Source of the DNA: Candidatus Levybacteria bacterium RIFCSPHIGHO2_01_FULL_38_26
Lineage (GTDB): Bacteria > Patescibacteriota > Microgenomatia > Levybacterales > UBA12049
DNA length: 64,000 nucleotides
Reading direction: 5' to 3'
NCBI GenBank assembly: GCA_001782075.1
Contig: MFNO01000022.1
Span: forward strand, 9,540-73,539
Position 1 is the stretch's first letter; each line of letters opens with the position of its first letter. Below the pieces are notes generated by a model. It was given only the letters and a program-made list of their open reading frames with translations. It was not told the origin of the DNA and did not search any database. Shown piece by piece: positions 1,087-57,511 of the stretch. The position numbers and the translations under genes were made by a program.

Positions 1087-1413
1087 TTATAGAATCAAAA
1101 TAATTGCTCCTATTGGCCAAAAAACGAAACCTAATAGAATAATCAGTTCAGCAGTCAAGAGTAAAAACAGCAAAAGAATATCCGTTAGGATTACAAAAGT
1201 TTTGATAAACACTGCCATGCCGATCGAAAATCCAACCAAGCCTTCTCTGTACTCATTTTTCCATGGTTTAAAATATGTTTTTATTAGCAAAGGCAAAGAA
1301 AATAATTGGAGAAAGGATTTGTTTACAGAAGTAAAATAATTAACAAGCCCAATTGGAGCCTCAAAAAACCAAAATTTAAGAAAAGCCAAAGGTAGGGTTG
1401 TTAAATAAAACAT
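1087..1413 (-). CDS. hypothetical small membrane protein
   Basis: 108 aa, hydrophobic throughout with several predicted TM segments; no motif recognised. Confidence 0.3.
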   Translation of the reverse strand: MFYLTTLPLAFLKFWFFEAPIGLVNYFTSVNKSFLQLFSLPLLIKTYFKPWKNEYREGLVGFSIGMAVFIKTFVILTDILLLFLLLTAELIILLGFVFWPIGAIILIL

Positions 1414-1454
1414 CTCCTCTTTAGTATAGGAAGTTTAGTATCAAAATACAAACC

Positions 1455-2888
1455 TTATATTCTCGGAAACAAAGGTTTTTGGGAGGTGATTTTTGGACCT
1501 TTAAATTGTTTTTCAATCTTCTCCGCAGTTTCGGGAAGGAAAGGTTTTAGCTCGTTTGCTATGTCGATGATCTTGTCAACATATCTAAATAATATATCTT
1601 TGAGCTTTTCATCGTCTGATACTCTCCAGGGTTCCTCATCGTTAATTATTCCATCGGTAATTCTAATATTACTCCAGATGTTGGATAGGGCATTTGAAAA
1701 ATTATAATCAAATCCAAATGATGTGTTAGGCTGTTTGAATTTAGAATGATTGCTTGGTTTATTATTGGGAAATTGATAGTTTATCCTTTCGCATAATTTA
1801 GCAACGCGGGCGACTAAATTTCCGAGTCCGTTTGCTAAATCTGCATTGTAGACTTCTTTAAACCTGCTTTCTGAAAAATCTCCGTCCTCAAAAGGGGAGA
1901 TTTCTTTTAATAGATAATAGCGAAGTGCGTCGGTACCATATTTTTCAATTAAATCTAGCGGATCTATAACATTCCCTAATGTTTTACTCATTTTTTGACC
2001 ATCGACAGTAAGATATCCATGAACGAAGAGTTTTTTTGGGGGGGTAAGTTTCGCCGAGAGAAGAAATGCAGGCCAGTATATTGCGTGGAACCTTAGAATT
2101 CCTTTTCCAATCACATGCAAATCAGCAGGCCACCATTTTTTGTATTTTTCCGTGTCTAGTGCAAATCCAATACCGCTTTGGTAAATATTTAGAGCGTCAA
2201 ACCAGACATACATTCTCTGCGTAGGATCATTGGGAACTGGGACACCCCAGTTTTTTGCCCTTTCATTTGAGCGGGAAATACTTATGTCTTTTAAACCTTG
2301 TTTAACAAATGAGAGAGCTTCATTTTTTCGCTTTTGCGGAATAATTTTAAGCTTATCTGTTTCGATCAGCTTTTCAATATCGTTTTGGTATTTTGACAGT
2401 TTGAAAAAGTAATTTGTTTCTGTTACTTCATCCAGTTTTTTCCCAGGGTGCTCAAAACATTCGCCTTTTTCGTTAAGCTCTTCTTTTTCGTAGAATAACT
2501 CGCATCCTACGCAATAAAGCCCTGTATATTCCTTTTTATAAATATCTCCATTTTTGTTGCATAACTCCCATAACTTCTGAGAAGAAGAATGATGCTTTGC
2601 ATCACTTCCTTTTTGAAAAACATCAAAGTGCACATTTAGTTTTTGGGCTAAATCCGCAAACAGCTTGCTGTTTTTTTCTACAAATTGCTGTATGGGTATT
2701 TTTTCTTTTTCCGCTGCTTGGACGTTTTTGAGCGCATTTTCATCTCCTCCTGAGAGAAGAAGAGTGTCGTCGCCTAGTATTTTGTGATAACGAGTTATAA
2801 CATCAGCTTGTACAAATTCTAATGCATGACCGATATGAGGCTTTGCATTTACATAAGGAATTGCGGTTGTTATATAAAATTTAGCCAT
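1455..2888 (-). CDS. metG: methionyl-tRNA synthetase (short form)
   Basis: HIGH motif (PHIGHALEFVQADV) and KMSKS motif (KMSKTLGNV); class I aaRS with a Zn-knuckle-like CVGCE...C..C segment. Confidence 0.9.
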   Translation of the reverse strand: MAKFYITTAIPYVNAKPHIGHALEFVQADVITRYHKILGDDTLLLSGGDENALKNVQAAEKEKIPIQQFVEKNSKLFADLAQKLNVHFDVFQKGSDAKHHSSSQKLWELCNKNGDIYKKEYTGLYCVGCELFYEKEELNEKGECFEHPGKKLDEVTETNYFFKLSKYQNDIEKLIETDKLKIIPQKRKNEALSFVKQGLKDISISRSNERAKNWGVPVPNDPTQRMYVWFDALNIYQSGIGFALDTEKYKKWWPADLHVIGKGILRFHAIYWPAFLLSAKLTPPKKLFVHGYLTVDGQKMSKTLGNVIDPLDLIEKYGTDALRYYLLKEISPFEDGDFSESRFKEVYNADLANGLGNLVARVAKLCERINYQFPNNKPSNHSKFKQPNTSFGFDYNFSNALSNIWSNIRITDGIINDEEPWRVSDDEKLKDILFRYVDKIIDIANELKPFLPETAEKIEKQFKGPKITSQKPLFPRI

Positions 2889-3413: not shown

Positions 3414-4145
3414 ATGCACGATTTAACACAAAGACAAGTTGAGATATTAAAAAATCTTATTGAAGAATATATTGAAACTGCAGAGCCCGTTGGATCTGAA
3501 ACTTTGGAAAAGAAACATAATCTAAGCGCATCTCCTGCGACTATCAGAAATGAGATGGTTAGGCTAACCAAACTTGGCTATATCAAAAAGCCTCATGCTT
3601 CGGCCGGTCGTATTCCAACTTCAAGCGGTCTTAAGTTTTATGTCAAACAGCTCATGCGCGAGAAAGAACCTTCGATTGTAGAAAGCGTTGCTCTAAAAGA
3701 AAAAATGTGGAACCTCAGAGATAAAGAAACCCATTTCTTAAAAGAGCTAACAAAATCTCTTGCTGACAAGACCAAGGCCCTGGCAATCTCTTCTGCAAAT
3801 GAAGGAGATATTTATTGTTCAGGCTACGCAAATATTTTGGATATTCCTGAATTTTTTGATATAGACGTTACCAAAAATCTCTTGAGCGTGATTGATGAAT
3901 TTGAGTATTTTGATAATCTATTTTCAAACGTGATAGAAGATGAAGATGTTCATGTTCTTTTAGGAGAGGAGTTGGGTCCAAGGCTTCAGGGTCCATATGG
4001 ATTTGTTTTCACGCGCTACCAAACACCTATGCGAATGTCTGGAGAAATTGGCGTGTTGGGACCGGCAAGGCTTAATTACACACATATTATTCCAACAGTT
4101 AGATATTTTGGAGATCTTATTGAGGAAGCAGCTAAAGGCTGGTAG
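3414..4145 (+). CDS. hrcA: heat-inducible transcription repressor HrcA
   Basis: N-terminal winged-helix segment LTQRQVEILKNLIEEYIETAEPVGSETL typical of HrcA; sits upstream of grpE-dnaK; CIRCE element in its promoter. Confidence 0.85.
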   Translation: MHDLTQRQVEILKNLIEEYIETAEPVGSETLEKKHNLSASPATIRNEMVRLTKLGYIKKPHASAGRIPTSSGLKFYVKQLMREKEPSIVESVALKEKMWNLRDKETHFLKELTKSLADKTKALAISSANEGDIYCSGYANILDIPEFFDIDVTKNLLSVIDEFEYFDNLFSNVIEDEDVHVLLGEELGPRLQGPYGFVFTRYQTPMRMSGEIGVLGPARLNYTHIIPTVRYFGDLIEEAAKGW

Positions 4146-4188
4146 TTCATGAGAAAATAAAAGATGGAAAGCAGAAAGTAGAAATGTA

Positions 4189-4689
4189 ATGGACAAAAAC
4201 GGATCAAAAACAAAAAAAAGCGATAAAATTGAAAAAACAGAAGTCGATGAGTCGCTAAAAAAAATTGAAGATTTAGAAAATAAATACAAGAGGGCGATTG
4301 CTGATTATCAGAACCTTGATAAAAGAGTATCAGAGGAAAGAAAAGAATGGGTGCAAAAAAGCAATAGAGAATTACTCTTGCGTCTTTTGCCTGTTTTGGA
4401 TACACTAGTGTTGGCTTCAAAACATAGTAAAGACCAGGGTGTAGCTTTAAGTGTCCAGCAATTTCTGGATGTTCTAAAGCTTGAAGGCGTAGAAAAAATT
4501 GAGACTATAGGCAGGAATTTTGACCCTTACATAATGGAATGTGTTGATACGTTAGAAGGAGAAGCGGATAAAGTTTTGGAAGAATTTAGAACTGGGTATA
4601 CTTTACACGGGCAGTTACTCAGAAGCGCTCAGGTAAGGGTAGGAAAGAAAGGAAGAGATTCTTCTCCGCAAAAGGCGGGATTAGAATGA
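4189..4689 (+). CDS. grpE: nucleotide exchange factor GrpE
   Basis: Coiled-coil N-terminus plus a C-terminal GrpE-like segment; position between hrcA and dnaK. Confidence 0.85.
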   Translation: MDKNGSKTKKSDKIEKTEVDESLKKIEDLENKYKRAIADYQNLDKRVSEERKEWVQKSNRELLLRLLPVLDTLVLASKHSKDQGVALSVQQFLDVLKLEGVEKIETIGRNFDPYIMECVDTLEGEADKVLEEFRTGYTLHGQLLRSAQVRVGKKGRDSSPQKAGLE

Positions 4690-4704
4690 CATTGAAGGAG
4701 AATT

Positions 4705-6663
4705 ATGGGAAAAATAATTGGAATTGATTTAGGTACTACAAACTCATGCGTAGCTGTGATGGAGGGTGGAGAGCCCAAGGTGATTCACTCGGCAGAGGGT
4801 CGCAATGTTATTCCATCGGTAGTTGATCCGATATCGCATGTTGTTGGTGATGTCGCAAAGCGACAGTTGGTTCTAAAACCAAAGAGAACCATTTTTTCAA
4901 TAAAAAGACTGATGGGACGAAAATTCACGGATCCCTCCGTGCAGTTTGACATGAAATGGTTGCCCTATACGATTAAATCGGGTCGAGACGGAATGGCTGT
5001 TGTTGAAGTTGAGGGTCGCACTTTTACCCCGCAGGAAGTTTCGGCTCAGATTTTGCAAAAGATAAAAGCAGACGCGGAGAGCTATTTGGGGGGAAAGGTG
5101 ACGCAAGCTGTTATTACTGTTCCTGCTTATTTTGACGATTCGCAGAGACAAGCTACAAAGCAGGCAGGGGAAATAGCAGGGCTTGAAGTGCTTCGGATTA
5201 TTAACGAACCCACAGCATCAGCTCTCGCGTATGGACTTGACAAGAAAAACGCGCATACGGTGGCTATATATGATTTGGGCGGCGGGACATTTGATATATC
5301 TGTTCTTGAGCTTGGGGAAGGAGTTTATGAAGTAAAATCTACCAATGGAGACACCCATTTGGGCGGAGATGATTTTGACCAGGTAATTATCAATCATATC
5401 GCTGAAGAGTTTAAGAAAGAAAATAACGTTGATTTGAGAAAAGATCCTCAGGCTTTGCAAAGACTTAGAGAATCTGCTGAAAAAGCAAAGATTGAATTAT
5501 CAAGCAGTCAAGAAGCTCAAATCAATCAGCCATTTATTACACAGGGAAAAGAAGGGCCGTTGCATCTCACAATGTCATTAGGAAGGGCAAAGCTTGAGCA
5601 GTTGGTTGACAATCTTGTTCAAAAAACTCTTGAGCCGGTTAAACAAGCACTTAAAGATGCAAAGATTGAGAAAGATAAGATTGATGAAGTGGTCTTGGTT
5701 GGCGGAATGACGAGAATGCCCAAAATTGTTGATACTGTCACTAAGTTTTTTGGCAAAGAGCCAAATAAATCAGTAAATCCCGACGAGGTTGTGGCTGTAG
5801 GCGCTGCTGTTCAGGGTGGAGTTTTGGGAGGAGAAGTCAAAGATGTCCTGCTTTTGGACGTAACTCCTTTGACTCTTGGAATAGAGACACTGGGCGGAGT
5901 CTCAACGCCTCTTATTGAAAAAAATGCAACCATTCCTACTTCAAAATCTCAAATTTTCTCAACTGCGGGGGATAGCCAGACTCAAGTTGAGATAAACGTA
6001 TTGCAAGGAGAGAGACCAATGGCTATGGATAACAAATCTTTGGGTAGATTTATCCTAAGCGGAATTCCGCCATCTCCTCGTGGTGTTCCTCAAATTGAAG
6101 TAACATTTGATATAGACGCAAGCGGAATTTTGAACGTAAAAGCGCAGGATAAAGCAACAGGAAAGGAACAAAGTATTAAAATTACAGGATCAACGGGACT
6201 TACAAAGGATGAGATTGAGAAAATGAAAAGAGATGCAGAGGAGCATGCAAAAGAAGATACAGAGAAAAAGGGAAAAATTGAGGCAAAAAATACAGCAGAT
6301 TCTCTCATATTTACCGCGGAAAAAACACTTAAAGACGCGGGAGATAAAGTTGCTGGGGATGTAAAAAAAGAAGTTGAGGATAAAATCTCTGCACTTAAGG
6401 CTGTTCTTGAGACCGGTACAAAAGAAGATTTGGAAGCAAAGAGCAAAGATTTATCAGACAGTCTTCAAAAAGTCGGACAGGCAATGTATTCTTCAGGGGG
6501 GTCAGCCCAAGGTCAATCCGATCAGACAGAAGGACAACAAGCAGGCGATTCCCAACATACTACAGATTCCGCAGGACCTGACACCGCAAATGGAGAGAAA
6601 AAAGATAAAAAAGCAAATGGTAAAAAGTCAGAGGAGCCGGTTGAGGGAGAAGTCGTAGAATAA
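4705..6663 (+). CDS. dnaK: Hsp70 chaperone DnaK
   Basis: [22 protein letters not shown] and [11 protein letters not shown] Hsp70 signatures; 652 aa. Confidence 0.97.
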
Positions 6664-6672
6664 GATCTTAGG

Positions 6673-6759
6673 GTTGTCATTCTGATCCTGAGCTTGTCGA
6701 AGGAGAAGAAGCTCGAACGAAGCTCGACGAGAGATCCTTCACCTCCTTCATGATGACAG
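6673..6759. repeat. GC-rich TIR-flanked intergenic repeat (copy A), immediately 3' of dnaK
   Basis: Begins GTTGTCAT and ends GATGACAG; contains CTTGTC and GAAGGAG/CTCCTTC stem segments. A diverged second copy with the same termini lies at 37455-37527 after secY. Confidence 0.35.
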
Positions 6760-6768
6760 AGGAAAGAG

Positions 6769-6788
6769 AGCGCGATTAGCGCTTTTTT
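6769..6788 (+). terminator. intrinsic terminator-like hairpin + T-run between dnaK and dnaJ
   Basis: AGCGC-GATTA-GCGCT stem-loop followed by TTTTTT. Confidence 0.4.
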
Positions 6789-6802
6789 AGTATAATAAAC
6801 AC

Positions 6803-7723
6803 ATGGCAACAGCAAATGACTATTACAAAATACTGGGAGTGTCTAAAAGCGCATCTAAGGAGGAGATAAAGAAGGCGTATCGAAAGCTTGCCCTTGAACA
6901 TCACCCGGATCGAAACAAATCTAAAGATGCGGCTGAGAAATTCAAGGAAGTAAATAAGGCTTACGAAGTTTTGTCTGATCCTCAAAAGAGACAAACTTAT
7001 GATCAGTTTGGCCATGCCGCATTTGAGCAGGGTGCCGGTCAGGGCCCTTTTGGAGGAGCAGGAGGACCATTCGGCGGTGCTGGGGGCGGGCAGACACGAG
7101 GCGGTCAATACGGGCCGTTTACTTATACATATACATCATCCGGTGGGGATGGTGGAGCAAATTATGACTTTGGAGGATTTTCGGATCCGTTTGAAATATT
7201 TGAGCAATTTTTTGGAGGCGGTTCGACTTTTGGCGGTCGACAAAGAAGGTCAACTTACTCTTTGTCTATAGATTTTATGGAGGCAATACGGGGTGTTGAG
7301 AAGAGGGTTACAATCGATGGTAAGACACAGACAATAAAAATTCCAGCAGGAGTTGATGATGGCTCCAGGATCCGTTTCGGAAATTATGATGTTGTTTTGG
7401 ATGTCCGACCGGACCTAAGATTTAGAAGAGAGGGATCAGATATTGTTTCTGAGAAGGAGGTATCTTTTTCTCAGGCTGCTTTGGGGGATACGGTTGAGGT
7501 AGAGACGATAGATGGAGGGGTAAAACTTAGAGTGCCTGCCGGCTCCCAGCCAAATACAATCATTAGACTACGCCAAAGAGGAGTGACTCGACTTAGCGGT
7601 GGTGGACGGGGAGACCATTATGTAAGAATTAAAATAGTTGTCCCGAAGAATTTGTCTCGTCGTCAAAAACAACTGCTTGAAGAATTTCAAAAAGAAAACT
7701 CTTCGAGAAAGGGGTGGTTTTAA
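6803..7723 (+). CDS. dnaJ: DnaJ-family co-chaperone (J domain + G/F region + C-terminal domains, no zinc finger; CbpA-like)
   Basis: J-domain [33 protein letters not shown] with the HPD motif; Gly/Phe-rich linker; no CxxCxGxG repeats. Confidence 0.85.
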
Positions 7724-8091
7724 CCATGCAAAAAATTATTCCAACCATATATTTTTATTTATTAAGCGCGGTTGGGATGGTTTTGATTATTATTGGATTG
7801 TTTAATTCAACGCATTATATCGTTGGAGTTACTGCTTATGATAAATATCCTTTGGGCTACAGCCCTGAATCCAGATGTGAATTTACGCCAAAACCAGTCT
7901 TGCTTGAGGGACAGACAGAAGTAGAATCCAGCCCTGAAGATCTACAAAAATCAAAGGACGAGTGTTTAAAAAGCGTTGAAGAAGAGCGAAGAAATAAAAA
8001 GGTAGATGATTTGGAGAAATCAATAACCTTTACCGCAATTGGTCTTTTGGTATTCGGCGCCCACTTCTACTTCGCCCGCCGCCGGGAATGA
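7714..8091 (+). CDS. hypothetical membrane protein (2 TM)
   Basis: N- and C-terminal hydrophobic helices with an acidic central region. Confidence 0.3.
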
Positions 8092-8415
8092 GCTTTAGCG
8101 CAACGCAACTGGAATAGTTATCCCAAGATCCATAAGCTTCTTAAATTGTTCTTTCCCAATCTTCAAAAGCAAGTCTTGCTTAAAATATGCTAGATCGTTT
8201 TTCACTTTTTTCTTATTTAACAAAAAGAATTTCATAAGCTTCATACTAATATTATTGTAATTCCTGAAGTCTTAGGTATATAAAAAATCCAACTGCAATT
8301 CCTGTAAGCATAACTGTTTCCATAATAAAATCATTTTCTTTTATAGGTTTAAATATTTGATGAATTGAAGGTAAGAAATATGAAAGAAATTAAGCGTATT
8401 CTAAAGCTAAGAGGG

Positions 8416-8979
8416 TTAGTTGCTTTCTTTCCATTTAATACTGCAGCCGGAGCTTGGTTTTTGGTTATCGGTTACCGATTCATCGTTTAAAACATTGTCG
8501 ATTGCGTTTCTGAGGTCATGTCCGTCGGTTGGGAAGTTATTTCCGGGTCTGCTGTCGTCAAGCTGTCCTCTGTAGGCTAATTTTCTTTCTTTGTCAAAAA
8601 GGAAAAAGTCCGGAGTGCAGACGGCAGTGTATTCTTTTGCGACTGCTTGTGTTTCGTCAAACAATAATGGGAAGGTAAATCCTTCTTCTTCTGCCATTTC
8701 TCTAAGACTTTCCGGCGCGTCTTGCGGATAGCTTGCCGGATCATTAGAGCTTATCGAAACAATTCCTATGTCTTTATCCTTGTAATCTTTCCCTATTCTT
8801 GCCAGCTCTTCTTTAACATGCTGCACATACGGGCAATGTCTGCAGATAAACATTACAAGAAGCGCCTTTTTGTTTTTGAATGTGTCCAATGAAACATTTT
8901 GTCCAGATACAACATCAGTCAAACTAAAATCAGGCGCTTTGGTTCCAAGCGTTAACATGGTAGACTGCATCAGTGCCAT
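8416..8979 (-). CDS. thioredoxin-fold protein (AhpC/TSA / thiol-disulfide oxidoreductase-like)
   Basis: CxxC-type motif FICRHCPYVQ in a thioredoxin-like context; about 187 aa. Confidence 0.55.
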   Translation of the reverse strand: MALMQSTMLTLGTKAPDFSLTDVVSGQNVSLDTFKNKKALLVMFICRHCPYVQHVKEELARIGKDYKDKDIGIVSISSNDPASYPQDAPESLREMAEEEGFTFPLLFDETQAVAKEYTAVCTPDFFLFDKERKLAYRGQLDDSRPGNNFPTDGHDLRNAIDNVLNDESVTDNQKPSSGCSIKWKESN

Positions 8980-53120: not shown

Positions 53121-53807
53121 ATGATGGCAGCAAGGAAAGCGACTAGCAAAAGGACAAAATCCACAAATGTTTCCGCCTGGGAACCCAACAAAGAAACCTT
53201 TGCCTCGGGAAGAAAATCAAGACAGCTTTTCAGCAAACGAAATGTTTTCATTGCCCTTGGGATAGTAATAATTGTTGGAATTTTGTATTATTTCAGAGGT
53301 TTGTTTGTGGTCGCTTTAGTCAACGGTCAGCCAATAACTAGGTTTGAAGTAATCCAAGAGCTTGAGAAACGAGGTGGCGAGCAGACATTGTCATCTCTTG
53401 TTACACAAGCACTTATTGTTCAAGAGGCAGGAAGGCAGGGGGTAAATGTCACAGAAGCAGAGATCGATGAAGAAGTCAAAAAACTTGAGGATACTCTTAA
53501 ACAGCAAGGGCAGAATCTTGACGATGCGCTCATGTTTCAAGGAACAACTAGAGAGAAATTTAGAGAACAAATTCGTGTACAGAAACTTGTTGAAAAAATG
53601 TTGGCAGATGAAATAAAAGTAACAGATAAGGAAATTACTGATTATATTCAACAGAATAAAGATACTATTCCAGCAACCATGAGTCCTTCTGAAGTAACAT
53701 CAAGCGCAAAACAAGCATTGGAAGATCAAAAAATGTCTGTCAAAGTACAGGAGTGGCTGCAAAAATTACAGGAGGCTGCACAAATTCAGTACTTTGTTAA
53801 TTACTAA
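53121..53807 (+). CDS. membrane-anchored SurA-N/PpiD-like chaperone domain protein
   Basis: Single N-terminal TM helix followed by a helical region resembling the SurA N-terminal chaperone domain; assignment tentative. Confidence 0.35.
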   Translation: MMAARKATSKRTKSTNVSAWEPNKETFASGRKSRQLFSKRNVFIALGIVIIVGILYYFRGLFVVALVNGQPITRFEVIQELEKRGGEQTLSSLVTQALIVQEAGRQGVNVTEAEIDEEVKKLEDTLKQQGQNLDDALMFQGTTREKFREQIRVQKLVEKMLADEIKVTDKEITDYIQQNKDTIPATMSPSEVTSSAKQALEDQKMSVKVQEWLQKLQEAAQIQYFVNY

Positions 53808-54381
53808 TTTTTCTTCTGCTTATAATTCTTTCAAAGACCTGACTTATTAACATTCCAGTAAATAGCACGATTAAATAAATTGTCAAAAGGATTTGAAAAG
53901 GCGCGGGAGACGTCTTCATAATTCCCAAAATAAAAGCAGACCACCAAGATAGACTAGAAATAGACCCAAAGGCAAAAAACAATCTTCTTACCTCCTTGAT
54001 GTTTTCATCAGATGATGTCATCAATTCTCTAAAAGGGATAGATGAAAGTTTTGGAGAGATAAAGTGTAGAAAAAGTCCGTTGATAATTATCACAAATACA
54101 ACAAGCATCTTGGTCAAAAACTTTGCAGACTGAGAGTATTTATCGATATCTGAAAGAAATAAAAATATTCCCGCTGAAACAATTACTAAAAGACCGAACC
54201 AAATTATTTTTGAAAAAGCCCTTAAAATATTTATCTCTATTTTTGTAGCATTAAGGTTTTTTAGAAGTTTTAGGAAAAATACATCTGCAATCATTACCGT
54301 CCCAAAACTCACAAACACTCCGAAAAGATGAAGCGTTGTGAATAAAACTTTGTTCTGCTGTGCAAACCCAATTAAGTCCAT
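53797..54381 (-). CDS. hypothetical membrane protein (5 TM)
   Basis: Hydrophobic profile only. Confidence 0.3.
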   Translation of the reverse strand: MDLIGFAQQNKVLFTTLHLFGVFVSFGTVMIADVFFLKLLKNLNATKIEINILRAFSKIIWFGLLVIVSAGIFLFLSDIDKYSQSAKFLTKMLVVFVIIINGLFLHFISPKLSSIPFRELMTSSDENIKEVRRLFFAFGSISSLSWWSAFILGIMKTSPAPFQILLTIYLIVLFTGMLISQVFERIISRRKISN

Positions 54382-54592
54382 GCAATTAATTTTAGCAGAA
54401 ACGGAAGGGATTTAATATAATATTAAACGGAAACTTGTCAGATCAGATTTTGAAAATATATCCTTCCTCGGAGCGCGCGACTCTTCCCGCAGTCGGATTT
54501 GCAAAATACGTGCCATCCTCCATTTCAACAATCTGAAAAAACTCAACCTCCCCAATTTTCCATCTCAAGCTATTCATTGTTTATAGATAAAT

Positions 54593-55381
54593 TTATTTCC
54601 TATCGGGATTTCTGTCGGGTTTTAAAAGATAAGATGAGATAGTATCATCGACTCCAGCATGCTGTATCCCTTCTATTTTAAAATGTCTGAATCCAGTAAG
54701 TTCATCAATACTTATTCCTTGATAAAAAACTTCTCTGTTTTCCTCGGAAGTCCTGCATATAATTCTTGAGTCAGAACCGGTATGTTGCCAAATATTATCC
54801 ATAATATTCTGTTTTGGCTTTGCAAGAAGAGCAACAAAAATTACTTTGTTACCATGTGTAGAGCCCTTTTGTCCGGTTGAGTTAACTACGCTTATTTTTT
54901 CACTCATGCCCAATTTTTCGATTACTTCTCTTGATCTGCTAACTACCTCGTCATTTTGTTCATAGCACTCAACGTTCGCGCCGGTCATTCTAGAAATAAG
55001 GATAGGAGATATTGTGAATGGGCCACTTCCTATAAACAAAACTCTGTCATCTTCTTTTACTTTTGCGAGTTCGGTTTCTTTGGCAATCAGCCGCTTAAAT
55101 CTATCGTACAGAGGGTATTCTTCTTCAGAATTTGTCTCACCTGATAGTAATTTTTGAGCAAATTCATTCTCCAAATTTGTTTCAAATTGTTCATAAAGAG
55201 CCTGTAATCTTTTTAAAGTATTTCTGTTTGCTAGATCGGAAACATCAGGATCTTTTAAATTGTCACTTTGCAAAAACATCTCATCCAGTCGAAAGCAGGC
55301 ATTTCTCACAGCTGAAGGGTCTTCAAGATTGGTACTTGCCAGTTGGCTGATTTCGGGTATAAGCTTTGGTATTTCGGTCAT
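54593..55381 (-). CDS. nicotianamine-synthase-like protein (short archaeal-type NAS fold; SAM-derived aminoalkyl transferase)
   Basis: ...YPLYDRFKRLIAKETELAKV...RVLFIGSGPFTISPILISR...ANVECYEQNDEVVSRSREVI follows the NAS pattern (FPYY.NY..L...E..LL....kVAFVGSGPLPLTSIVLA....T.F.NFDID..AN..A), and the size (about 260 aa) matches archaeal NAS homologues. Confidence 0.5.
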   Translation of the reverse strand: MTEIPKLIPEISQLASTNLEDPSAVRNACFRLDEMFLQSDNLKDPDVSDLANRNTLKRLQALYEQFETNLENEFAQKLLSGETNSEEEYPLYDRFKRLIAKETELAKVKEDDRVLFIGSGPFTISPILISRMTGANVECYEQNDEVVSRSREVIEKLGMSEKISVVNSTGQKGSTHGNKVIFVALLAKPKQNIMDNIWQHTGSDSRIICRTSEENREVFYQGISIDELTGFRHFKIEGIQHAGVDDTISSYLLKPDRNPDRK

Positions 55382-55394
55382 TGTGAAAACAAAA

Positions 55395-55763
55395 TTATAT
55401 TTCCTGGTGGACCAGGTCTTTGGATTTGAAAAAATCTTTCGTGAACATCACTACTTTTTTTACGTCAAACTTCTTACAGCTGTAAATATCGGACGTAAAA
55501 AATTTGACTTTTCTCCAGGCATATACATGGCAGCCGGATTCTGTCCATGCGACAAAACCATTCAGCTCGTAGAGTGGCACATCTTGGTTATCCCATTTGT
55601 CTGGAGGCCAAGAGTAGGGACCAGAGAATATTCTCATCTTCAGGACTTTGGAAAGTTCTTTGAGATAATATTTTATTGTCTTACCATCGGCATTGATCCC
55701 ATAATGACCCTCAATGATAAGTCTTTGTCTGATAACACTCGGCTCTAAATTCTTCACACCCAA
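55395..55763 (-). CDS. S-adenosylmethionine decarboxylase-like pyruvoyl-dependent proenzyme (SpeH/SpeD class 1b-like)
   Basis: 122 aa; LIIEGHYGIN N-terminal strand; the putative Glu-Ser self-cleavage site in FVAWTESGCHVYAWRK aligns with the AdoMetDC LSESHISIHTWPE; SDIYSCK aligns with DVFTCG. Confidence 0.5.
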   Translation of the reverse strand: MGVKNLEPSVIRQRLIIEGHYGINADGKTIKYYLKELSKVLKMRIFSGPYSWPPDKWDNQDVPLYELNGFVAWTESGCHVYAWRKVKFFTSDIYSCKKFDVKKVVMFTKDFFKSKDLVHQEI

Positions 55764-55832
55764 ATTATACCATTTAACCTATTTACAATTGCTATTGAGC
55801 TCCAATGAGCGTATAATTTCGTTAACAAAAAT

Positions 55833-56846
55833 ATGGCTACTGTAGGAAGATCAAAAAGTGGAATTAATTACCTTGCTGAGTTGTTAAGAGAAGCACCTAA
55901 AACTCTTACAAAGGTTTGTTTCTGGAAAATACCACATAATACTGGAAAAGAAGATATTAGATTAAAAATAGGAAGATATAATAAAGACGGTTTTGAAACT
56001 TTGGAAACTAGACAACCTAAAAGCGAATTAACACTTGATCACGAGGAGTTTCAAAACTTGCTTAAATTTTTATCAGAAAATTATGAACCTTTCAAGAAGG
56101 GTGTTATGAAATACATTCCAATTGATGAAAAATTTGATGAAAAGAGCATAGATCACCTGAGGGCAATTTTTGCAAATCCTGATAAGCAAAAAGTTTTAGA
56201 TTTCGTAGCAGAGAATAATATTCTTCCTGTGGATCTAATTGCTTCTCTACAACATCAAATGCGAATAAATGCGGTTCGAGAATTTGAAGGTATGTTAAAT
56301 AAAAATTTACTCGAGCAAAAGTGGCAAGAATGGTTTGAAAGAAACGATTGGGTATTGGGCAGCGAGTTTGTAAAAATTCTCGATGAAAGGGAAATAGATA
56401 CATCAAACATCACGGACTATTTAATGCAAGCATACGATGGATTTTTAGATATTATTGAAATAAAAAGACCAGAAGGAGATTTACAATTTTGGGCTGAAGG
56501 ACAAGATCACGGAAATTATGTGCCTTCAAACGACTTAACGAAAGCCATAACTCAAGCTACGAAATATATTTATGAAGTCGAACGAGAAGCGAATAGTATT
56601 AAGTTTTTGGAAAGGGTTGGAAATGTAAAAACCATTAAGCCACGCTGCATTTTAATTTTCGGAAGATCCAATGATTGGAATAATGAAAAAAGAGAGTCGT
56701 ATCGAATATTGAACTCAAGTTATCATAGCCTGACTATTATGACTTACGATCATGTATTAAGTAGGGCTAAAAGGATTTTGGGATTTAGTGGTAAGGAGGA
56801 AGCTGTTATGAAAGAAGATGTTCAACCAAAAGATGTATCCTTTTAG
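55833..56846 (+). CDS. Shedu-like antiphage defence nuclease (DUF4263, PD-(D/E)xK)
   Basis: C-terminal domain with AYDGFLDIIEIKRPE (D...ExK core), ILIFGRS and the terminal LTIMTYDHVL block typical of DUF4263/SduA; variable N-terminal domain. Confidence 0.6.
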   Translation: MATVGRSKSGINYLAELLREAPKTLTKVCFWKIPHNTGKEDIRLKIGRYNKDGFETLETRQPKSELTLDHEEFQNLLKFLSENYEPFKKGVMKYIPIDEKFDEKSIDHLRAIFANPDKQKVLDFVAENNILPVDLIASLQHQMRINAVREFEGMLNKNLLEQKWQEWFERNDWVLGSEFVKILDEREIDTSNITDYLMQAYDGFLDIIEIKRPEGDLQFWAEGQDHGNYVPSNDLTKAITQATKYIYEVEREANSIKFLERVGNVKTIKPRCILIFGRSNDWNNEKRESYRILNSSYHSLTIMTYDHVLSRAKRILGFSGKEEAVMKEDVQPKDVSF

Positions 56847-56938: not shown

Positions 56939-57511
56939 TTATGCTTTTGGGGGTTTTCCTTCATGACCATCTGAAATTGTTCTCCGAATGTCTTCGAGCG
57001 CGCTTCTGTCTTTTTCACTTAGGTCATCATTGCCACGAATGGTACGAAATGGATTTACTTCAAGCGAATCAGCCCTTCCCTCTTTACTTCTTCTTTCTAT
57101 TTCAAGATCAATAATGTTTGCATTGCCATCTTTAGATATTCGAGCCAGTTCTTTACCGGAGAATACAAAGTTGGAGATAGGTCTGGGTTTTCCTTCCCTT
57201 GCCATTATTTGATCTCCACTGTAATGTTCGCCTGCAATCTCGTCTGAAATATCAACTACTATCAAAAATCCTTTTTCTCCTGCAAAACCACGTGCCATTT
57301 CTTCATCATCGGTAAAGAATTGGGAACCGGCGATTTTTGCAAGTTTTGCCCATCTTCCAAAACGTTCTGATCCCATTCTGTTGATAACATCAATAGGATT
57401 TTTTGTCCCTTCCGAAGCAGCTTGTTTTGCAGTATTTAGCTCATTCCATTCATTTTCAAGTTTTTCATCAAGAATTTCTGGTTTTTCCTTATATCCTCTA
57501 TATAGTTTCAT
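56939..57511 (-). CDS. hypothetical soluble protein
   Basis: 190 aa, charged, no motif recognised; lies between the Shedu-like gene and tag. Confidence 0.3.
   Translation of the reverse strand: MKLYRGYKEKPEILDEKLENEWNELNTAKQAASEGTKNPIDVINRMGSERFGRWAKLAKIAGSQFFTDDEEMARGFAGEKGFLIVVDISDEIAGEHYSGDQIMAREGKPRPISNFVFSGKELARISKDGNANIIDLEIERRSKEGRADSLEVNPFRTIRGNDDLSEKDRSALEDIRRTISDGHEGKPPKA

Follow-up and report, generated by a model that had tools for sequence, protein, structure and literature searches.

A 64,000-nucleotide stretch of contig MFNO01000022.1 from Candidatus Levybacteria bacterium RIFCSPHIGHO2_01_FULL_38_26 (the whole of which is referred to here as the window) raises the question of why a gene for a protein with the fold of S-adenosylmethionine decarboxylase (AdoMetDC) should lie beside a gene of the nicotianamine synthase (NAS) family, and of what the two products could make together from S-adenosylmethionine (SAM). 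The genes occupy 55395..55763 (122 aa when read from a TTG) and 54593..55381 (262 aa) of the minus strand and are 13 bp apart, as an earlier preliminary description of the sequence had it; we call their products dc-like (the AdoMetDC-fold protein) and NAS-like (the nicotianamine-synthase-family protein). The reading that we favour, with modest confidence, is that the two form one biosynthetic module, in which dc-like would decarboxylate a substrate other than SAM and NAS-like would transfer the aminocarboxypropyl group of intact SAM. The features on which this reading turns are the following.

55395..55757, minus strand: dc-like gene, for a predicted 120-aa pyruvoyl-type proenzyme (Pfam, AlphaFold2 (AF2)/Foldseek, hhalign, 111 homologues).
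54593..55381, minus strand: NAS-like gene, for a predicted 262-aa SAM-dependent aminocarboxypropyl transferase of NAS/CntL type (Pfam, phmmer, AF2/Foldseek).
55536..55541, minus strand: codons of the predicted self-cleavage site Glu75-Ser76, which correspond in alignment to the ES of the ESH motif of Aquifex and phage SpeD.
55476..55478, minus strand: codon of Cys96, invariant and 20 residues past Ser76.
55382..55394, minus strand: 13-bp spacer between the dc-like and NAS-like genes, in which the scan gave no promoter-like or terminator-like sites.

The open reading frame (ORF) of dc-like, when called mechanically, reaches back to the TTG at 55763, and a length of 122 aa had been assigned to it on this basis. 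The ORF stands, but the N-terminus MKNLEP is common to all 111 dc-like homologues (54-99% identity), so that the start is probably the GTG at 55757 and the protein 120 aa long. Since nothing resembling a promoter or a terminator lies between the two genes, their co-transcription is likely.

That the two proteins cooperate is strongly supported by a survey of gene neighbourhoods and by the existence of gene fusions. Of 20 species-level genome loci with a dc-like gene, six have NAS-like directly beside it (one of the six has a weak NAS match), and no other neighbour of dc-like recurs in these loci; among 80 metagenome loci encoding NAS-like, dc-like directly adjoins it in 10. After deduplication, 14 distinct pairs remain, their genes 9-93 bp apart, in which dc-like lies upstream, downstream, convergent or divergent, all four arrangements being found; one further pair on an IMG/VR contig gives about 15 loci in total, and their hosts are DPANN archaea, bacteria of the Candidate Phyla Radiation (CPR) and other bacteria. 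In a neighbour-joining tree, the paired NAS-like proteins all fall in one clade of small proteins (250-280 aa), with 14 of the 22 NAS-like genes inside this clade being paired (at least 700 bp of flank), against none of about 27 outside it. The two domains are also found in a single polypeptide: in P0339, a 452-aa protein (1181..2539 of locus L115) whose identical ORF is present on four contigs, the dc profile scores 69 bits at residues 21-136 and the NAS profile 63 bits at residues 166-394. The fusion family (P0379-P0405 among it) comprises at least 28 full-length clusters of about 420-458 aa and 44-62% identity, with the AdoMetDC-like part N-terminal and the NAS-like part C-terminal, and occurs in Woesearchaeota and Patescibacteria on contigs of up to 463 kb. 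Invariant in its dc domain are the Ser, the Gly that follows it, the Tyr at Ser+5 and the Cys, and in its NAS domain the NAS-type Glu/Asp pair, Arg, Lys and Tyr. Pfam found no domain in P0339, and the NCBI title of one fusion is 'class I SAM-dependent methyltransferase'. Because the adjacency survives rearrangement and the fusion family has diversified, we regard these data as strong evidence of a shared pathway.

It is accordingly very improbable, in our view, that the genes are neighbours of unrelated function, or that dc-like is a non-catalytic partner comparable to the trypanosome AdoMetDC prozyme. A partner is missing nearby for half of the dc-like genes and for one in three of the clade's NAS-like genes, and AdoMetDC paralogues that are catalytically dead and serve as regulators have been described (PMC5201418); however, the adjacency recurs in four arrangements and in two domains of life, the fusions have diversified, and the invariance of Ser76 and Cys96 would not be required of a dead paralogue.

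The assignment of dc-like to the AdoMetDC fold, proposed earlier from the letters, was confirmed by profile and structure comparison, as was the presence of a processable Ser. The protein scores 31.3 bits against Pfam AdoMet_dc (PF02675, cut-off 25), and 16.8 bits against the NCBIfam SpeD equivalog, below its threshold of 75.65. A direct sequence search of the PDB gave nothing and a profile search one marginal match only, so that a fold search was needed: the AF2 model, with a predicted local distance difference test score (pLDDT) of 94, has as its best Foldseek matches the AdoMetDC of Thermotoga maritima (1vr7/1tlu; template modelling score (TM) 0.73-0.76, 17% identity), and hhalign against canonical class 1b SpeD returned a probability of 92.6%. 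The putative Glu-Ser motif WTESGCHVYAWRK is present in the protein, and its Ser76 is invariant in 36 dc-like sequences and in the fusion family. By analogy with the canonical enzymes, dc-like would self-cleave at Glu75-Ser76, with Ser76 becoming the pyruvoyl group. When residues are mapped from the hhalign class 1b alignment and an Aquifex alignment, the canonical catalytic signature and that of dc-like correspond as follows.

ES cleavage site: Glu75-Ser76 in dc-like.
Cys 20 residues after the Ser: Cys96, invariant, with the same spacing as S63/C83 of T. maritima (PMC10407285).
His of ESH: invariant Gly77 (ESG).
His at Ser+5 (T. maritima H68): invariant Tyr81.
Pro-Glu of HTWPE: Arg84-Lys85, variable across the family (WPE becomes W-R-K/F).

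The Glu of HTWPE, which we take to be the counterpart of the ribose-binding E247 of human AdoMetDC, is among the residues replaced. According to Li et al. (2023; PMC10407285), the Pro of HTWPE is completely conserved in bona fide AdoMetDCs and the His is found in all functional homologues; the equation of the HTWPE Pro with the gamma-marked Pro in a figure of that work is our own reading. In comparison with the class 1b AdoMetDC/SpeD enzymes of T. maritima, Aquifex aeolicus and Bacillus, dc-like therefore shares the length of about 120 aa, the fold (TM about 0.75), the Glu-Ser site, the Cys 20 residues past the Ser and a Trp at Ser+7, and differs in its low sequence identity and in the three replacements listed above, as well as in a 9-residue insertion, SWPPDKWDN, in an invariant RQR near the N-terminus and in the lack of a SpeE partner. 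A spermidine synthase was looked for by tblastn with E. coli SpeE, which found nothing in the window and, in the fetched loci, only a marginal match in L045 (E=0.005). Since the His, Pro and Glu of ESH...HTWPE are replaced and no SpeE lies near, we conclude on sequence grounds that dc-like is not a canonical AdoMetDC and that it represents a distinct, unusually conserved subfamily. Identity among its members is 60-83% across DPANN archaea, CPR bacteria, metagenome-assembled genomes (MAGs) of delta- and gammaproteobacteria and a Phycisphaerales MAG, and an exhaustive profile search of representatives (50% identity clusters) gave 8 at E<=1e-30, 174 at E<=1e-10 and 762 at E<=1e-3. Within the subfamily, clade A, to which the window's protein belongs, has the motif WTESGCHVYAWR, and clade A' (CPR bacteria) the motif WKESGCHVYAFSET; the residue at Ser+3 is His in both, Ser in clade B (Methanocellales, Micrarchaeota, Pacearchaeota), which lacks this His, and variable in the fusions.

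The nearest published parallel is that of the SpeD-derived arginine and ornithine decarboxylases SpeDA and SpeDC (Li et al., 2023; PMC10407285), which are likewise SpeD homologues without SpeE, horizontally spread, common in CPR bacteria, DPANN archaea and Methanomicrobia, and clustered with an enzyme that uses their amine product. The dc-like protein nevertheless lacks the His that these enzymes share, and its partner is NAS-like instead of SpeY, HSS or CASDH. An identity with SpeDC or SpeDA was rejected, as the motifs do not fit: dc-like reads A-W-T-E-S-G-C-H-V-Y-A-W where SpeDC reads Q-L-I-E-T-S-L-x-S-G-H-F-A-N...Y, and the Gln, Thr, Phe and Tyr diagnostic of SpeDC (positions taken from the supplementary alignment, Fig. 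S5, of PMC10407285) are not present. At the Kaiserbacteria locus L013 no homospermidine synthase lies nearby, so that this locus is not visibly the published cluster.

The replaced residues bear directly on the idea, put forward in the preliminary description, that NAS-like uses decarboxylated SAM. In that case dc-like would be a divergent but true SAM decarboxylase, and NAS-like would transfer aminopropyl groups from its product, possibly iteratively, to make a polyamine without spermidine synthase. We consider this unlikely and keep it as a minority reading, because throughout the subfamily other residues stand in place of the second His and of the Pro and Glu of HTWPE, and Pro and His are conserved in real AdoMetDCs (PMC10407285). 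Moreover, the 'anomalous' SpeD homologues (those without SpeE) tested so far all proved to be amino-acid decarboxylases with no AdoMetDC activity (PMC10407285), and among the partners of the wider family GNAT and SET proteins modify amines. In its favour are the AdoMetDC fold, with a score above the Pfam cut-off, the invariant Ser and Cys, the fact that both recurrent partners, NAS-like and SET, bind SAM, the SAM synthetase gene adjacent to the pair in Saccharibacteria, and the absence of SpeE nearby, which would make another transferase necessary; in addition, a route in which SAM is decarboxylated first (route b) is still allowed for MccD/MccE of microcin C (PMC10491745).

The protein that would have to accept decarboxylated SAM is itself a clear member of the NAS family, neither a spermidine synthase nor a generic methyltransferase, and in this the profile and structure comparisons agree with what had been proposed. 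NAS-like scores 59.2 bits against Pfam NAS (PF03059; cut-off 27.1) over profile positions 11-255 of 276; phmmer against the PDB finds the archaeal thermonicotianamine synthase of Methanothermobacter thermautotrophicus (MtNAS; 3fpe) at E=1e-22, or E=7e-41 with the family profile. Its AF2 model (pLDDT 91.7) has the two-domain NAS fold, with an N-terminal helical domain and a Rossmann-type SAM-binding domain, and matches MtNAS at TM 0.82-0.84, CntL at 0.74-0.77 and ordinary methyltransferases only at about 0.5 in Foldseek. The length of about 262 aa and the (F/L)xGSGP core pointed out earlier were both found, the latter as FIGSGP.

MtNAS (3fpe/3fpj) is thus the best match in sequence (23-26% identity) and in fold, and shares with NAS-like the two-domain layout, the Gly-rich SAM loop and the residues aligned with E71, R94, K190 and R210. 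Of these, E71 aligns with the catalytic Glu (MtNAS E81, AtNAS1 E77, SaCntL E84) and is invariant in 34 sequences; in the dc-NAS fusion family its position is taken by an invariant Asp. On the other hand, the proposed catalytic Tyr (MtNAS Y107, AtNAS1 Y106) is replaced by an invariant Phe95 in the NAS-like clade and by Leu in the fusions, E67 stands where MtNAS has Gly, and no decarboxylase partner of MtNAS has been reported. As a separate observation, E67 and E71 form an invariant ExxxE in the NAS-like clade, spaced like the plant-specific pair E73/E77 in AtNAS1 (PMC10248798). The CntL enzymes of staphylopine, pseudopaline and yersinopine biosynthesis, which move one aminocarboxypropyl group from SAM onto an amine, resemble NAS-like in family and fold and also lack the Tyr of MtNAS; because SaCntL is without it, the Tyr does not define the NAS family as a whole. 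A staphylopine-type CntL is not what NAS-like appears to be, with E=1.6e-13 and 50.6 bits against NCBIfam CntL (NF033601), far under the equivalog cut-off of 350, and with no CntM-like gene among the recurrent neighbours in the surveyed loci; genes for the CntM opine dehydrogenase, the CntK racemase and the Cnt transporter were not found.

Aminopropyltransferases bind decarboxylated SAM via acidic residues; NAS-like appears to have nothing comparable and retains the cationic residues that it has in common with MtNAS, which is a further point against its use of decarboxylated SAM. We favour intact SAM as its donor, since the MtNAS-type residues are kept and a SAM synthetase gene adjoins the pair in Saccharibacteria, where it is convergent and lies directly after dc-NAS (L014, with MetK at 7215..8426 on the minus strand, L036 and L038). 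A decarboxylation of something other than SAM also accords with the amine-modifying nature of the proteins (GNAT, SET) with which members of the wider dc-like family are associated.

Our hypothesis is therefore a module that would combine SAM with a partner bearing an amine to give a small compound resembling nicotianamine or a polyamine. In it, dc-like would cleave itself at Glu75-Ser76, gain its pyruvoyl cofactor and decarboxylate an alpha-amino acid, and NAS-like would transfer the 3-amino-3-carboxypropyl group of intact SAM to an amine nucleophile with release of methylthioadenosine, as MtNAS and CntL do. For the decarboxylase substrate there are three options. In option (a), which we put forward tentatively, a free amino acid would be decarboxylated to give the amine acceptor of NAS-like; the SpeD-derived arginine/ornithine decarboxylases, clustered with the user of their amine product (PMC10407285), offer an analogue. 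In option (b), a somewhat more doubtful possibility, dc-like would strip the terminal carboxylate from the aminocarboxypropyl adduct, for a net transfer of an aminopropyl group; what favours it is that the terminus of the adduct chemically resembles the methionine moiety of SAM and that a finished product results. Option (c), that dc-like does both, seems to us very improbable. The analogue of option (b) is microcin C, in which MccD and the N-terminal domain of MccE, a SAM-dependent aminocarboxypropyl transferase and a decarboxylase, together install an aminopropyl group on the phosphoramidate of a peptide-nucleotide, by transfer followed by decarboxylation in route a, although the order of the steps is debated (PMC10491745). 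The MccE decarboxylase differs in being dependent on pyridoxal phosphate, where dc-like is predicted to be of pyruvoyl type, and MccD lies outside the NAS family by sequence.

Several points weigh against this hypothesis, or against parts of it. About half of the dc-like genes of clades A and A' have no NAS-like gene within 6 kb, and the unpaired dc-like genes are 70-80% identical to the paired ones. Near-identical unpaired genes disfavour option (b), unless the NAS is encoded elsewhere; they suggest a common metabolite as the substrate and so point to option (a), which for its part leads to a carboxy-amine for which no further enzyme is apparent. As NAS-like and SET partners both bind SAM, SAM itself could be the substrate of the decarboxylase. 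The replacement of Tyr107 by Phe, given that the Y106F mutant of AtNAS1 is inactive (PMC10248798), means that the chemistry of NAS-like may differ from that of MtNAS. The conserved Arg and Lys of NAS-like would act as carboxylate binders on the strength of their conservation with MtNAS, and the substrates of both enzymes are all ones that we infer.

What the product would be used for, as a polycation, a metal ligand or otherwise, is a separate matter, and here the kinship with MtNAS and CntL raises the alternative of a classical nicotianamine-type metallophore, for which the decarboxylase would only tailor the product or supply a building block, the product then serving in metal capture or export. 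Metal chelators are the products of all characterised NAS and CntL relatives (PMC10491745, PMC10248798), in L108 a regulator gene of ArsR/SmtB type is found upstream of GNAT-NAS-dc, a TauE-type permease gene follows the pair in the closest relative, L107, the membrane protein encoded downstream of the pair in the window has weak CopD-like matches, and distant NAS-like proteins occur in NAS-NAS-GNAT-MFS clusters. Nevertheless, the paired loci show no recurrent gene for an opine dehydrogenase (CntM) or an importer, NAS being the only recurrent neighbour of dc-like; regulator and permease are found in one locus each, and decarboxylation would take away a metal-binding carboxylate. We therefore judge a metallophore to be quite unlikely, while it should be said that this alternative is about what the product does in the cell and does not conflict with the enzymology that we favour for the module.

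The sequences immediately flanking the pair contain three features to be considered.

55764..55772, minus strand: extended -10-like element TGGTATAAT, abutting the TTG and read off the sequence.
54382..54592, minus strand: intergenic stretch 3' of the NAS-like gene, holding unsupported ORFs of 44 aa and 47 aa and a promoter-like site.
53797..54381, minus strand: gene for a membrane protein of 194 aa, further downstream on this strand, whose association with the pair is possible though unproven.

The element TGGTATAAT, if functional, would set the start of the transcript at about the GTG, giving a leaderless mRNA and the MKNLEP N-terminus; it does not appear in the output of the consensus promoter scan, which demands a -35 element. 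A search of Rfam over 53700..56000 for a riboswitch or other known RNA gave no matches at E values up to 1. Downstream, the preliminary description had seen a 54-aa Arg/Lys-rich ORF at 54577..54413 as a possible third member of the operon, and this did not hold up. The frame stops after 44 codons (MNSLRWKIGEVEFF...IFKI*) and its peptide is acidic or neutral; the one that is basic is encoded in a different frame, 54555..54412, with a TTG start and 47 aa. Neither peptide had a match in protein-family searches, tblastn of both against all fetched related loci gave nothing below an E of about 1, and in L107 the TauE permease gene occupies the position. Given the stop at codon 45 and the lack of family matches and of homologues in related loci, a third operon member was rejected. 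For the next gene there is a promoter-like site at 54441..54414 (minus strand).

That gene encodes the 194-aa membrane protein, which has only sub-threshold Pfam matches (DUF6644, DUF2214, CopD); its homologue in L107 is 52% identical, and it was not seen in the other paired loci. In L107, whose NAS-like protein is 77% identical to that of the window, the order is dc-NAS-TauE, followed by the membrane-protein homologue and a SurA-like gene, and a SurA-like gene follows the membrane-protein gene in the window as well. The upstream flanks differ: L107 has toxin-antitoxin and kinase genes where the window has a gene for a Shedu anti-phage nuclease (55833..56846, plus strand; Pfam SduA_C, 92 bits), divergent from dc-like. 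The same Shedu/dc-like arrangement is found on the ACD contig AMFJ01022020 (L025). The neighbouring 190-aa ORF at 56939..57511 (minus strand) has no family match. The suggestion of an accessory island is thus supported in part, by the adjacent nuclease gene and the changed upstream flank, and not by composition, as a compositional island was rejected: the G+C content of the pair (0.37-0.38) is within the range of its surroundings (0.33-0.40). A CPR host is plausible, and an identical protein is filed as 'uncultured bacterium ACD_50C'. A phage origin was also rejected, no homologue being found in 50,697 phage genomes. One pair-bearing contig filed as viral (IMG/VR UViG_3300023212_000537, 93 kb; L118 5001..6182) carries a dc-like gene whose product is 62% identical, convergent with a NAS-like gene.

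Outside the pairs, both families are found in other company. The wider dc-like family includes, among its more distant members, fusions to SET domains of the lysine methyltransferase type (L024 5983..6864, P0266, P0291, P0334), a GNAT-like C-terminal fusion (P0256) and tandem dc-dc proteins. Clade B dc-like genes follow His_biosynth and imidazoleglycerol-phosphate dehydratase genes on the same strand in Methanocellales (L019, L020; ~4200..6375), and in a woesearchaeote (CP070803; L005 5025..7148) dc-like overlaps a PfkB kinase gene upstream and a DeoC aldolase gene downstream in an apparent operon, with no NAS-like gene within 6 kb; the complete genome CP070662 likewise has a dc-like gene without NAS-like beside it. 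As for the NAS-like family, many members are fused to a GNAT acetyltransferase (~450 aa; P0137, P0152, P0179, P0184), and the NAS-NAS-GNAT-MFS clusters mentioned above are gammaproteobacterial (L039, L061, L067; ~3900..7450). In L091, a stand-alone SET gene (4185..4676) lies between two NAS-like genes, near ABC-2 transporter and glycosyl/pyruvyl transferase genes; other clusters of distant NAS-like genes are suggestive of natural-product pathways, having AMP-binding, thioesterase, PALP, amidohydrolase and M28 peptidase genes among their members. NAS-like genes that have no dc-like neighbour are directly adjoined by a gene for an LL-diaminopimelate aminotransferase (TIGR03542, above cut-off) in L027 (3243..4496), L047, L069 and L086; it may reflect lineage-specific synteny or hint at the acceptor substrate. 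As a third member of the module the aminotransferase was set aside and treated as housekeeping synteny, its BLAST cluster, at first sight recurrent, being a mixture of LL-diaminopimelate, aspartate and alanine aminotransferases.

In the literature searched, the coverage of which was incomplete, so that this is absence of evidence only, we found no description of a pairing of dc-like with NAS-like. Both parts come from known families; what is new is the decarboxylase subfamily and its coupling, up to fusion, to a NAS-like enzyme. Alongside the arginine and ornithine decarboxylases reported in 2023, the subfamily would be a further offshoot of the AdoMetDC fold, and the pairing would add a new branch to the biosynthesis of SAM-derived small molecules. 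It is conceivable, though on balance improbable, that the two genes alone constitute a third route to spermidine-type polyamines, independent of spermidine synthase and of the aspartate-semialdehyde (CASDH/CASDC) pathway. One version would have the pyruvoyl enzyme convert ornithine, or an amino acid like it, to a diamine; NAS-like would add the aminocarboxypropyl group of SAM and the same decarboxylase would then trim the resulting carboxy-polyamine to the polyamine. In the other, iterative aminopropyl transfer from decarboxylated SAM would yield a polyamine from SAM alone. The pair is found mainly in CPR bacteria and DPANN archaea, whose metabolism is thought to be minimal and whose sources of polyamines and metal ligands are largely unknown, and our findings point to an undescribed two-enzyme route from SAM to a small amine compound in these tiny symbiotic archaea and bacteria. 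Should the polyamine route prove true, genome-reduced CPR bacteria and DPANN archaea would possess a minimal and horizontally mobile polyamine pathway.

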